DNA from: Escherichia coli
Lineage (GTDB): Bacteria; Pseudomonadota; Gammaproteobacteria; Enterobacterales; Enterobacteriaceae
Assembly (NCBI RefSeq): GCF_044324875.1
Contig: NZ_CP172185.1
Direction: 5' to 3' (one strand)
Length of the DNA: 64,000 bases
In this document: one piece after another, positions 24,333 to 25,332 of the stretch
How the letters are laid out: every line of letters starts with the position of its first letter
Position numbering within the stretch: the first letter of the stretch is position 1
The notes under the pieces: model-generated
The model's database searches: none
Seen by the model: only the letters and a program-made list of their open reading frames with translations
Told to the model about the DNA's origin: nothing
Position numbers and translations under genes: made by a program

Positions 24333-24505
24333 TTAATCTTAAGGCAGATCTAACAAGGATATTGTTCTTCGATCTGCCTCTGCTACCCTTCCCGATGTCC
24401 TACCCTTACGCACAAAATCCCCTGACGCATAAATCGAGAAAAATGAATCGTACTCGAGGCAACTCTCACTTTTTCACACCAAATTAAAGTTTTGATCGCA
24501 ATTAC

Positions 24506-24542
24506 TTGAAATAAGCGTAATGGTTACTATAGTAAACATTAC
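24506..24542 (+). promoter_or_regulatory. candidate promoter (TTGAAA-N17-TAGTAA) overlapping a 26-bp near-perfect palindrome GTAATGGTTACTATAGTAAACATTAC (24517-24542); putative operator of the toxin-antitoxin operon
   Basis: Palindrome read directly (24 of 26 positions symmetric), 16 nt upstream of the toxin start codon. Confidence 0.5.
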
Positions 24543-24557
24543 CACAAGGATGGATGT

Positions 24558-24944
24558 ATGGGTGTGTATAAGGCAAGACGATTCAGCCAAAGCACGAAAA
24601 AACTTGGTATTCACGATAAAGTTCTCATGGCTGCCGCTGAAGAAGTGATGCAGGGCATATGGGAGGCTGATTTAGGTAGCGGTGTCATCAAAAAACGTTT
24701 ACCCCTCCAACAAGGAAAGAGTGGTGGAGCCAGAACAATTATCTTTTTTAAATCAGCAAATCATGTGTTTTTTTATGATGGTTGGTCCAAGAGTGGTCTA
24801 AGCAGTAAAGGAACCAAAGAAATCGAAGATGATGAACTGGCGGCCTACAAAAAAATGGCAAATGCATTTCTGGCCTTTAGCAATAAGCAAATAGAGGATT
24901 TGATCGAAACTGGCTTTTTGATTGAGGTGAAAAATGAGCGATAA
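24558..24944 (+). CDS. HigB-like (RelE/ParE superfamily) toxin, 128 aa
   Basis: Motif KKRLPLQQGKSGGARTIIFF resembles the HigB core (GKxGGxRxI) as recalled from Vibrio HigB; SD AAGGA upstream; 11-nt overlap with the downstream HTH gene; about 40% GC. Confidence 0.65.
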   Translation: MGVYKARRFSQSTKKLGIHDKVLMAAAEEVMQGIWEADLGSGVIKKRLPLQQGKSGGARTIIFFKSANHVFFYDGWSKSGLSSKGTKEIEDDELAAYKKMANAFLAFSNKQIEDLIETGFLIEVKNER

Positions 24945-25263
24945 ATTACAAATGATGCTGGAAGATGCAAAGGAACTGAATGCACTGGGCCTGATGTCTG
25001 ATAGTGAAGTTGATGCCATTGCCGTCATGGTCAAAGCTCGTGAAGTCAGCGCCCGTATAGCCAAAGTCAAATCAATGACGGGTGAAGAGATCAAAGCCAT
25101 CCGCACCCGATACGGCATGTCACAATCCGTGCTGGCACATACAATGGGAATGTCAAAAGAAAGTGTCTCGAAATGGGAACGTAATGAAATAAAACCGAGC
25201 GGCCCGGCATTACGTATTTTGAATACATTGGCAATAAAAGGGCCGGAAGTTTTTGCAAAGTAA
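24934..25263 (+). CDS. HigA-like antitoxin, XRE-family HTH DNA-binding protein, 109 aa
   Basis: C-terminal HTH (IKAIRTRYGMSQSVLAHTMGMSKESVSKWERNEIKPSGPALRILN); SD GAGGTG; translationally coupled to the upstream toxin gene. Confidence 0.65.
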   Translation: MSDKLQMMLEDAKELNALGLMSDSEVDAIAVMVKAREVSARIAKVKSMTGEEIKAIRTRYGMSQSVLAHTMGMSKESVSKWERNEIKPSGPALRILNTLAIKGPEVFAK

Positions 25264-25292
25264 AATGTTTGCAAATGATTTACCACATTCAT

Positions 25293-25318
25293 TAGTACCC
25301 CTTGATTAAGGGGTACTA
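25293..25318. terminator. bidirectional hairpin TAGTACCCCTT-GATT-AAGGGGTACTA between the antitoxin gene and the GGDEF remnant
   Basis: Perfect 11-bp stem in the 69-bp convergent spacer. Confidence 0.65.
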
Positions 25319-25332
25319 ACACTATTCTAATT

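Follow-up and report, generated by a model that had tools for sequence, protein, structure and literature searches.

Between rimO and the GGDEF gene dgcI, where Escherichia coli K-12 has only a short spacer, some E. coli strains carry two small overlapping genes. What these genes encode, how they might act and how they came to lie between two core genes are examined here in a 64,000-nt stretch of E. coli DNA (contig NZ_CP172185.1; hereafter, the window). The pair very probably forms an intact, autoregulated type II toxin-antitoxin (TA) operon of the HigBA-2 kind. It is an otherwise ordinary two-gene module of the HigB-2/HigA-2 kind that is already known in public annotation, as PGAP labels the pair "RelE/ParE family toxin | HTH protein".

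Genomic context of the module

BLAST of the window against K-12, the sequence of the K-12 spacer and the GC content delimit a segment absent from K-12, which runs from the rimO side to the dgcI side (24338–25333, 996 bp, 41% GC). Its counterpart in K-12 is a geneless rimO-dgcI spacer of 42–46 bp (a 42-bp stretch at 876663–876704). The initial annotation had stated that K-12 has no gene here and had described a low-GC segment, and both statements agree with the comparison: GC content is 0.416 over 24381–25330 vs 0.527 in rimO and 0.504 in the whole window. The pair is flanked on one side by the rimO stop codon (24332) and on the other by the stop codon of a 3' remnant of dgcI (25333, minus strand), and the breakpoints of the segment coincide with these two stop codons. 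Neither a target-site duplication nor flanking direct repeats around the segment were found by the K-12 comparison, a repeat scan, or BLAST. The adjacent IS1-associated deletion is also present as described: IS1 (25860–26627) stands in place of 1970 bp of pdeI/dgcI relative to K-12, and a search across E. coli returned no genome with a contiguous match to the IS1 junction.

The module is chromosomal and single-copy, and its neighbors are core housekeeping genes, with no defense island and no mobile-element context. An Rfam scan of 24200–25450 gave no match at E-values up to 1. Two further open reading frames, a 196-aa antisense ORF (24798–25388, minus strand) and a 41-aa ORF (24362–24487, plus strand), were considered and taken as spurious because they overlap the conserved genes or a hairpin.

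The toxin

The first gene (24558–24944, plus strand, ATG start) encodes a 128-aa protein that holds GKSGGARTIIFF and is preceded by a Shine-Dalgarno-like AAGGA at 24546–24550. On the strength of its sequence and modeled structure, the protein is assigned to the PF06296 (HigB-2, 'PF_RelE') family with a predicted RelE fold. It matches the Pfam model PF06296 "RelE" with an E-value of 7.9e-33, residues 1–124 corresponding to model positions 1–120 of 120; the same domain is present, among the matches listed, in all 69 homologs with a precomputed domain. The Pfam scan of the toxin gave no match to the canonical HigB families PF05015 and PF09907 at domain E-values up to 10. Because the toxin belongs to PF06296 rather than to these families, the earlier designation 'HigB-like' holds by gene order and by the name HigB-2 only. 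A PDB search with the single toxin sequence found no match at E-values up to 1, while a profile of 21 homologs retrieved only chains of Vibrio cholerae HigB-2 (E-value 1.3e-4), over the GK(S/R)GG.R motif. No family was assigned to the toxin by NCBIfam and no defense-system family by PADLOC, and the sole match in PHROGs is a family of unknown function (E-value 1e-5). In a Foldseek search with the AlphaFold2 model (pLDDT 84.4, pTM 0.78), the top four matches are HigB2 chains (probability 1.0, TM 0.49–0.61), followed by Cami1, HP0894, YafQ, ParE, HigB1, RelE and YoeB. Profile and fold searches thus place the 128-aa protein within the RelE/ParE superfamily, as had been proposed from the sequence; the refuting outcome named in the initial annotation, a placement outside the RelE/HigB fold, did not occur.

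The alignment with V. cholerae HigB2 (VcHigB2) pairs Lys45, Arg47, Arg59, Trp76 and Lys78 of the toxin with Lys49, Arg51, Arg64, Tyr82 and Lys84, so that the toxin retains four of the five residues of the HigB2 active site. The four basic residues are invariant in the homolog alignment and present in 129–135 of 135 family representatives (Arg47 in 129, Arg59 in 135, Lys78 in 134). The fifth position is aromatic in 128 of the 135 (Phe in 97, Tyr in 20, Trp in 11); the catalytic Tyr82 of HigB2 is absent from the E. coli toxin, which has Trp76 instead, and most long family members have Phe. Since Tyr occurs here in a minority of the family, it is not a family-wide feature, and the aromatic character alone is conserved. 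In HigB2 the substitution Y82A lowers activity 1200-fold (PMC5416850). The presence of Trp76 is compatible with membership of PF06296, though the chemistry of the E. coli toxin may differ from, or be weaker than, that of the two characterized relatives, which both have Tyr. The toxin also contains about 20 extra C-terminal residues (helix 109–118, strand 121–123), which are missing from HigB2.

The antitoxin

The second gene (24934–25263, plus strand, ATG start) encodes a 109-aa protein. It shares 11 nt (ATGAGCGATAA) with the toxin gene and is preceded by a Shine-Dalgarno-like GAGGTG at 24924–24929. Both ORFs and their toxin-first order are therefore present as the initial annotation described, and its identification of the partner as an XRE-type helix-turn-helix (HTH) protein is corroborated by domain searches and structure models: Pfam HTH_3 is matched at residues 53–94 (E-value 3.4e-9), phmmer against PDB retrieves the HigA-2 structures 5jaa and 5j9i (E-value 6e-4, residues 47–106), and the modeled HTH superposes on the C-terminal domain of HigA2 with 1.1 Å over 62 residues (TM 0.82–0.84). 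The predicted architecture comprises two N-terminal helices (approximately 2–17 and 23–43) followed by the XRE-type HTH (approximately 50–107). In a model of the toxin and antitoxin fused through a linker (pTM 0.75), the N-terminal helices of the antitoxin reach a pLDDT of about 97.

Scores for other HTH families fall below their cut-offs, namely 47.1 bits vs 61.8 for the NCBIfam MqsA family TIGR03830, 36.7 vs 60 for NadS, and 26.7 vs 110 for PRK10072 (YiaG). The identity with K-12 YiaG (27% over 51 residues) is limited to the HTH. By these comparisons, the antitoxin is related to MqsA, NadS and YiaG at the level of the HTH only. Its PADLOC matches are likewise generic HTH ones.

Predicted promoter and operator, and hairpins

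A consensus scan predicts a σ70 promoter on the plus strand at 24506–24533, with the −35 box TTGAAA (24506–24511), a 16-nt spacer and the −10 box TATAGT (24528–24533), matching the consensus at 10 of 12 positions; the −10 box is invariant across four genera. The predicted operator (24517–24542) consists of two GTAA-N3-TTAC boxes (24517–24527 and 24532–24542), which form a 13+13-nt inverted repeat over the −10 box with 92% complementarity. It stands out as the invariant block in the otherwise diverged upstream regions of E. coli, UBA5654, Kluyvera, and Siccibacter. In 11 related loci, the GTAA-N3-TTAC box recurs at −41 to −44 and at −26 to −28.

The segment also contains two hairpins. The one past the rimO stop codon (24342–24379, plus strand; AGGCAGATC...GATCTGCCT) was identified as an inverted repeat with a folding energy of −16.2 kcal/mol (z −2.9); K-12 carries a different hairpin there, and the structure is probably the rimO 3' end of the present allele. 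The other lies between the convergent stop codons of the antitoxin gene and dgcI (25292–25319) and has a perfect 12-bp stem and a 4-nt loop (z −3.5 on the plus strand and −4.2 on the minus strand). It was earlier reported as the module's own terminator. The hairpin itself is real, but both strands lack a U-tract and no terminator was called there by the scan, so that a terminator function is plausible at most; a bidirectional 3' end structure is possible.

Proposed mode of action

The two genes would be transcribed as a bicistronic mRNA from the single promoter (−35 at 24506, −10 at 24528). By analogy with the characterized HigB-2 and ToxP, the toxin would most likely act by entering the A site of the ribosome and cutting the mRNA under translation, which would halt translation and growth. 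The basic residues Lys45, Arg47, Arg59 and Lys78 would work on the phosphate backbone, with Trp76, an aromatic residue, stacking on an mRNA base. The N-terminal helices of the antitoxin are expected to bind and neutralize the toxin, while its C-terminal XRE-HTH would dimerize, bind the pair of GTAA-N3-TTAC palindromes that spans the −10 box and repress the operon. As in other members of the family, the toxin would be freed upon degradation of a labile antitoxin. Toxicity, neutralization and mRNA cleavage are thus ascribed to the pair by analogy: a search of the accessible literature found no experiment on the E. coli pair, and a search with O157 locus tags returned nothing relevant (Z1062 is bssR).

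The RelE fold could also serve a toxin that is not an mRNA endonuclease and instead blocks the ribosome without cleavage, inhibits another enzyme (as Salmonella SehA does with RNase III) or poisons gyrase in the manner of ParE, with the antitoxin and autoregulation unchanged. [quoted passage not shown] SehA, a HigB-like toxin of another family and a predicted RNase, has no RNase activity, and the residues critical to it are located in an additional helix at the C-terminus (PMC12817084); homology-based assignments of mechanism in the RelE/ParE superfamily can therefore fail, and ParE proteins have the same fold. However, SehA has a different topology (α1-3, β1-3, α4) and lacks the active-site residues, whereas Lys45, Arg47, Arg59 and Lys78 are near-invariant here; on account of the differences described in secondary-structure order and critical residues, Salmonella SehAB was rejected as a close relative. 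Moreover, both characterized members of PF06296 inhibit translation (PMC5416850, PMC10098735), the base-stacking role is compatible with an aromatic residue that is not Tyr, and ParE structures rank far below HigB2, YafQ and HP0894 in the fold search. A toxin without endonuclease activity is accordingly considered unlikely.

A related reading takes the 'long' PF06296 toxins, with Phe or Trp in place of Tyr and an extra C-terminal helix and strand, as a functional subclass that might stop translation without RelE-type acid-base cleavage or might hit another target. In this reading, the E. coli copy would have stayed at a single core locus from a time before Escherichia, Kluyvera and a third genus diverged, and its role might on that account be regulatory and of benefit to the host instead of selfish. 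This proposal too is rather improbable.

Distribution and evolutionary history

The proposed accessory status, for which a survey across genomes had been suggested, is evident from 5426 complete E. coli genomes: the module is carried by 1138 (approximately 21%, O157:H7 included), and the site is empty in 4283. Carriers include O157:H7, O55:H7 and many clinical and animal isolates, while the module is absent from K-12, O104:H4 and one sampled ST131 (O25b:H4) strain. Beyond E. coli, an antitoxin homolog (phmmer E-value of 1e-9 or better) lies directly downstream of the toxin gene in 77 of 80 loci from many phyla. In most cases the two genes overlap, and the commonest overlaps of the two genes among related loci are 4, 8 or 11 nt.

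The dN/dS ratios of the two genes are 0.05 and 0 in comparison with O157 Sakai (ECs_5399/ECs_5400) and 0.08 and 0.07 in comparison with UBA5654, which indicates that both genes are under purifying selection. The dS between E. coli lineages is core-like (0.04–0.07), and orthologs in Kluyvera and another Enterobacteriaceae genus occupy the same gsiD-bssR/rimO neighborhood. Given these observations, together with the lack of a target-site duplication and the position of the breakpoints at stop codons, the view that the module was inserted between rimO and the GGDEF remnant is not established; an old resident lost in K-12-like lineages seems at least as likely. A functional link to rimO, which modifies S12 near the A site, was also considered and was dropped because the Kluyvera ortholog adjoins bssR and gsiD and has no rimO within 4 kb.

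The trigger of the module might be phage infection rather than stress, so that the same molecular mechanism would serve chiefly abortive infection instead of stress response or stabilization. Toxins of the RelE/ParE superfamily are discussed as defense toxins (PMC11980606), the presence of the module varies among E. coli strains, and the HTH of the antitoxin bears a weak resemblance to HTH components in PADLOC defense systems. The toxin, however, has no PADLOC match, the core housekeeping neighborhood does not constitute a defense island, the locus is old, with synteny that extends to other genera, instead of turning over fast, and only one of 50,697 phage records contains a relative of the module. 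A mainly anti-phage role is thus quite unlikely.

It is very unlikely that the pair is in decay or has been domesticated, with an inactive toxin and an HTH protein kept as a transcription factor only (as solitary K-12 YiaG may be): its chromosomal single-copy state outside any mobile element, the replaced catalytic Tyr, the few truncated toxin variants in E. coli (P0013, P0016, P0025, and P0038) and the distant resemblance of the antitoxin to YiaG would fit such a fate, but both ORFs have their full length and both carry a CDS annotation in 59 of 60 genomes taken from across the ranking, purifying selection on the toxin equals that on the antitoxin (dN/dS 0.05–0.08), the pairing and overlap of the genes and the predicted operator have been maintained in different genera, and 1128 of the 1138 carriers retain at least 80% of the 1-kb segment.

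An intact TA operon remains the preferred interpretation. It adds one chromosomal type II system to a TA repertoire that varies within E. coli and has little import beyond annotation. Still, it represents an unusually clean TA pair that different genera keep at the same place in the core genome, under purifying selection, which bears on the debate over selfish vs useful chromosomal TA systems, and it gives geneticists a HigB-2 family member native to E. coli. Furthermore, the catalytic Tyr known from V. cholerae is missing in most of the PF06296 family. These three modest points could interest TA specialists, but none is very surprising.

Comparison with known systems

PF06296 is the family of V. 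cholerae HigB-2, which is known for ribosome-dependent mRNA cleavage and a toxin-then-antitoxin gene order (PMC11980606). V. cholerae HigB-2/HigA-2 (VCA0468/VCA0469; PDB IDs: 5ja8, 5jaa, 5j9i, 8a0x) share this family with the E. coli pair, provide its only PDB relatives by profile and rank first by fold; the toxin gene comes first in both, and the basic active-site residues align. HigA-2, like the E. coli antitoxin as predicted, consists of an N-terminal toxin-binding segment and a C-terminal XRE-HTH dimer domain (PMC5416850), and the footprinted VcHigA2 operator is an inverted repeat that extends from past the −35 box across the −10 box, the layout predicted for the E. coli operator (PMC11006873). 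The similarity between the toxins is nevertheless remote (13–16% identity in the structural alignment, TM 0.5–0.6): the toxin of E. coli exceeds HigB2 by 18 residues, with an insertion of 5 residues at 80–84 as well as the additional C-terminal helix and strand, and it has Trp76 in place of Tyr82. The N-terminus of HigA2 is formed by a helix and a strand, whereas two helices are predicted in the E. coli antitoxin. The operator sequences also differ (TGTACGC-N5-GCGTACA vs two GTAA-N3-TTAC boxes), as do the locations, a superintegron in V. cholerae and a site between core genes in E. coli.

The closest experimentally characterized pair is ToxP/AntitoxP (CBUA0028/CBUA0027) from plasmid pQpH1 of Coxiella burnetii, for which toxicity, translation inhibition, mutual binding and binding to the own promoter have been demonstrated (PMC10098735). 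ToxP is 36% identical to the E. coli toxin (E-value 5e-24) over nearly the full length, C-terminal extension included, and AntitoxP is 33% identical to the antitoxin (E-value 2e-12), also near full length; the gene order is the same and the genes overlap. Unlike the chromosomal E. coli pair, ToxP/AntitoxP is plasmid-borne and serves plasmid maintenance. The catalytic Tyr is moreover retained in ToxP, whose annotated ORF adds 30 residues at the N-terminus.

Bicistronic relE-yiaG modules of the PF_RelE family, with examples from E. coli strains, are cited in a review by Gerdes (mBio 2025, PMC11980606). As in the present pair, a PF06296 toxin gene precedes one for a YiaG/HigA2-like HTH protein whose N-terminus forms two helices; in these modules the two helices are predicted to touch the C-terminal helices of the toxin. 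The subfamily to which the review draws attention differs in the disordered N-terminal extensions of its toxins, which the E. coli toxin does not have.

Acinetobacter baumannii 'HigB2Ab' was set aside as a comparison, its name being local to its paper and its family not evident from the text. Canonical HigB/HigA systems (Rts1/Proteus, PF05015; K-12 HigB/YgjN, PF09907) have in common with the E. coli pair the RelE/ParE superfamily fold, the toxin-first operon, the HTH antitoxin and, as would be expected for the E. coli toxin, ribosome-dependent mRNA cleavage. The canonical HigB toxins nevertheless belong to other Pfam families and have another arrangement of helices without the C-terminal helix (PMC5416850), and the architecture and dimer geometry of the canonical HigA antitoxins are unlike those of the E. 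coli antitoxin.

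Organization of the locus

The stop codons of rimO (24332, +) and of the truncated dgcI (25333, -) lie 1000 bp apart. The interval holds a toxin ORF (24558-24944, +; 128 aa) with an AAGGA Shine-Dalgarno-like sequence 7 nt 5' of its ATG, and an antitoxin ORF (24934-25263, +; 109 aa) with a GAGGTG sequence 4 nt 5' of its ATG; the two overlap by 11 nt (ATGAGCGATAA). GC content is 0.416 in 24381-25330, 0.527 in rimO, and 0.504 in the whole window. Since the neighboring dgcI and pdeI remnants are likewise low in GC (0.45 and 0.39), this is no distinguishing mark of the module. In K-12 MG1655, the rimO-dgcI spacer measures just 46 bp and carries its own, different hairpin. 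The initial annotation was accurate in its description of two ORFs, low GC, the rimO/dgcI setting, and a gene-free spacer in K-12.

The module had also been credited with its own terminator. A stable hairpin (25292-25319; z -3.5 and -4.2) separates the stops of the antitoxin gene and dgcI, which converge, but it lacks a U-tract, which leaves the terminator role at the level of plausibility. No Rfam family was matched in the module region. Two additional ORFs, one of 196 aa antisense to both TA genes (24798-25388, -) and one of 41 aa starting with TTG in the spacer upstream of the pair (24362-24487, +), were judged spurious because of overlap with conserved coding sequence or a hairpin.

Family, fold, and active site of the toxin

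The toxin matches Pfam PF06296 ("RelE") end to end (E 7.9e-33), while the canonical HigB families PF05015 and PF09907 are absent from its Pfam scan. PF06296 is the family of Vibrio cholerae HigB-2; its members are mRNA-degrading, ribosome-dependent toxins encoded ahead of their antitoxins, and their pairing with YiaG/HigA2-like HTH partners has been described, E. coli strains included (RelE/ParE superfamily review, PMC11980606). The HigB-type label thus holds insofar as PF06296 includes HigB-2 and the toxin gene comes first, but it does not extend to the canonical HigB families.

A PDB search with the toxin as a single sequence gave no match; a profile built from 21 homologues retrieved HigB-2 chains only (5ja8, 5ja9, 8a0x, 5mje; E 1.3e-4), and the match covers the motif singled out initially. 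The RelE-superfamily fold of the toxin is supported in silico by an AlphaFold2 model (pLDDT 84.4, pTM 0.78), for which the top four Foldseek hits are HigB2 (probability 1.0), followed by Cami1, H. pylori HP0894, YafQ, ParE, M. tuberculosis HigB1, archaeal RelE, and YoeB. The predicted C-terminus is about 20 residues longer than that of HigB2 (helix 109-118, strand 121-123), an extension shared with the Pfam model PF06296 and most relatives.

Activity of VcHigB2 requires Arg51, Arg64, Tyr82, and Lys84 (Hadzi et al., PMC5416850), and Lys49 was added to this set in a Coxiella study (PMC10098735). In an HMM alignment, Lys49, Arg51, Arg64, Tyr82, and Lys84 map to K45, R47, R59, W76, and K78 of the toxin. 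Among 135 family representatives at <=50% identity, R47 is conserved in 129, R59 in all 135, and K78 in 134, whereas position 76 is occupied by Phe (97), Tyr (20), or Trp (11). The basic residues therefore constitute a family signature and the tyrosine does not, aromatic character alone being kept at position 76. After the catalytic Lys78, the Enterobacterales clade carries a 5-residue insertion (GLSSK, toxin 80-84, window 24795-24809), which is missing from most of the family and lies where model confidence is lowest.

Domain architecture of the antitoxin

Residues 53-94 of the antitoxin correspond to HTH_3 (E 3.4e-9); matches to the MqsA, NadS, and YiaG types are weaker and below curated cut-offs. 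Among solved structures, the best match is the P22 C2 repressor (E 9e-6), restricted to the HTH. HigA-2, the sole TA antitoxin among the significant matches (E 6e-4), is aligned over the whole C-terminal domain (query residues 47-106). In a fused toxin-linker-antitoxin model based on 37 paired sequences (pLDDT 85.9, pTM 0.75), the HTH fits the C-terminal domain of HigA2 to within 1.1 A (62 residues superposed), and the N-terminal 45 residues are confidently predicted as two helices, in agreement with the two-helix YiaG-type architecture described in PMC11980606. The PF06296 match, the HigB2-first fold search, and the HTH_3 partner support the original reading of a HigBA-like TA pair, which is essentially right.

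Conserved pairing, selection, and predicted regulation

When one genome was scanned for each bacterial species, 80 loci were obtained, from Enterobacterales, Legionellales, Thiotrichales, Betaproteobacteria, Omnitrophota, Verrucomicrobiota, and others; in 77 of them an antitoxin homologue lies directly downstream, mostly with an overlap of 4, 8, or 11 nt. Relative to O157:H7 Sakai, the toxin differs by five synonymous and one non-synonymous changes (dN/dS 0.05) and the antitoxin by three synonymous and none non-synonymous (dN/dS 0). Against the orthologue from the Enterobacteriaceae genus UBA5654, dN/dS is 0.08 and 0.07, respectively.

The best consensus match to a sigma-70 promoter (TTGAAA-16-TATAGT, 24506-24533) is overlapped by a predicted operator (24517-24542), a 13+13 nt inverted repeat of two GTAA-N3-TTAC boxes. 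This 26-bp block is nearly invariant in E. coli, UBA5654, Kluyvera, and Siccibacter, whereas the upstream DNA around it has diverged; 11 related loci carry the box again at positions -41 to -44 and -26 to -28. The placement is that of the footprinted VcHigA2 operator, which starts after the -35 box and extends over the -10 box (PMC11006873).

Distribution

Of 5426 complete E. coli genomes, 1138 carry the 1-kb segment as a single copy, with 98.6-100% identity in almost all carriers; the 1146 matching places comprise 1145 on chromosomes and one on a plasmid. The K-12-type empty junction was found in 4283 genomes, so that carriers and empty sites account for 5421 of 5426. Carriers include O157:H7, O55:H7, and O7:K1 CE10, while the site is empty in K-12, O104:H4, an O25b:H4-ST131 strain (4224), and BEN2908. 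PGAP already labels the pair as a RelE/ParE family toxin and an HTH protein, and the Sakai genes bear the tags ECs_5399 and, for the "addiction module toxin RelE", ECs_5400.

Plasmids often carry more distant relatives (224 records, headed by Piscirickettsia, Sinorhizobium, Rhizobium, Coxiella, Pantoea, and Providencia), and such relatives are nearly absent from phages (1 of 50,697 records). The lone phage relative, annotated as a hypothetical protein, belongs to Escherichia phage PhiR12_3 (PV340552.1 4340-4657; host ECOR13; 37% identity, E 2e-11). A 1198-bp contig (L003, JAIJJM010000872.1) from a metagenome-assembled genome labeled 'Collinsella sp.' encodes protein sequence 100% identical to the E. 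coli toxin and the adjoining dgcI 3' end; this contig almost certainly entered the bin as a contaminant from E. coli.

History of the locus

The module had been regarded as an insertion. A BLAST comparison with K-12 confirms that the segment is absent there: 24338-25333 stands in place of 42 bp, with breakpoints coinciding with the rimO and dgcI stop codons (the latter TAG in the window and TAA in K-12). However, the segment is not flanked by direct repeats. Between-lineage dS in E. coli (0.04-0.07) is in the usual range of E. coli core genes. In two other Enterobacteriaceae, the same neighborhood harbors orthologues (amino-acid identity 74% and 68%), the gene order being bssR, rimO, one ORF, the TA pair, and gsiD-gsiC-gsiB in UBA5654 (pair at L004 4001-4706) and bssR, the TA pair, and gsiD-gsiC-gsiB in Kluyvera sichuanensis (pair at L005 4001-4707). 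Core-like dS and a neighborhood shared in two genera speak for long residence at this site, followed by loss from some E. coli lineages, more than for recent insertion. Because pdeI-dgcI is missing at both loci and gsiD adjoins the pair, the low-GC pdeI-dgcI may have arrived later, in Escherichia, between gsiD and the TA module.

The hairpins that follow the rimO stop in the two spacer alleles are unrelated (window 24338-24379, arms AGGCAGATC...GATCTGCCT; K-12 876663-876708, arms CAGGCCGG...CCGGCCTG). Next to the module, an IS1 (25860-26627; flanks 25334-25859 and 26624-28790) stands in place of 1970 bp of K-12 (874167-876136). Only ~394 codons from the N-terminal part of pdeI and ~175 from the C-terminal part of dgcI survive, so both c-di-GMP genes are inactivated. 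The dgcI-side junction was found as one uninterrupted alignment in none of the 5426 complete genomes; the deletion looks strain-specific or rare.

Probable function and comparison with known systems

By sequence, the closest characterized relative is the Coxiella burnetii plasmid pQpH1 pair: the toxin is 36% identical to ToxP (CBUA0028; E 5e-24, full length) and the antitoxin 33% identical to AntitoxP (CBUA0027; E 2e-12). Toxicity, translation inhibition, mutual binding, and binding to their own promoter have all been demonstrated for these proteins (PMC10098735). A search of the accessible literature turned up no experiments on this E. coli pair. The module is very probably a functional, translation-inhibiting, autoregulated type II TA system, as judged in silico from the family and fold of the toxin, its conserved basic residues in the active site, the domain layout of the antitoxin, conservation of the gene pair, purifying selection, and the conserved palindrome over the promoter. 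It is an unremarkable representative of a known, already annotated family; of mild interest are how the long PF06296 toxins with Phe or Trp act chemically and why the pair has persisted at one core locus across genera.

By analogy with V. cholerae HigBA-2 and Coxiella ToxP/AntitoxP, the toxin would enter the ribosomal A site and cut mRNA. The N-terminal helices of the antitoxin would hold the toxin in a complex kept out of the ribosome, and the antitoxin dimer, with or without toxin, would repress the promoter; degradation of the antitoxin would set the toxin free. RelE-type A-site cleavage specifically is likely, although less firmly so given the Tyr-to-Trp difference and the precedent of SehA, a HigB-like Salmonella toxin of another family that inhibits RNase III instead of cutting mRNA (PMC12817084). 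As SehA differs in topology and lacks the conserved basic residues, it serves as a caution and not as a model for the toxin described here.
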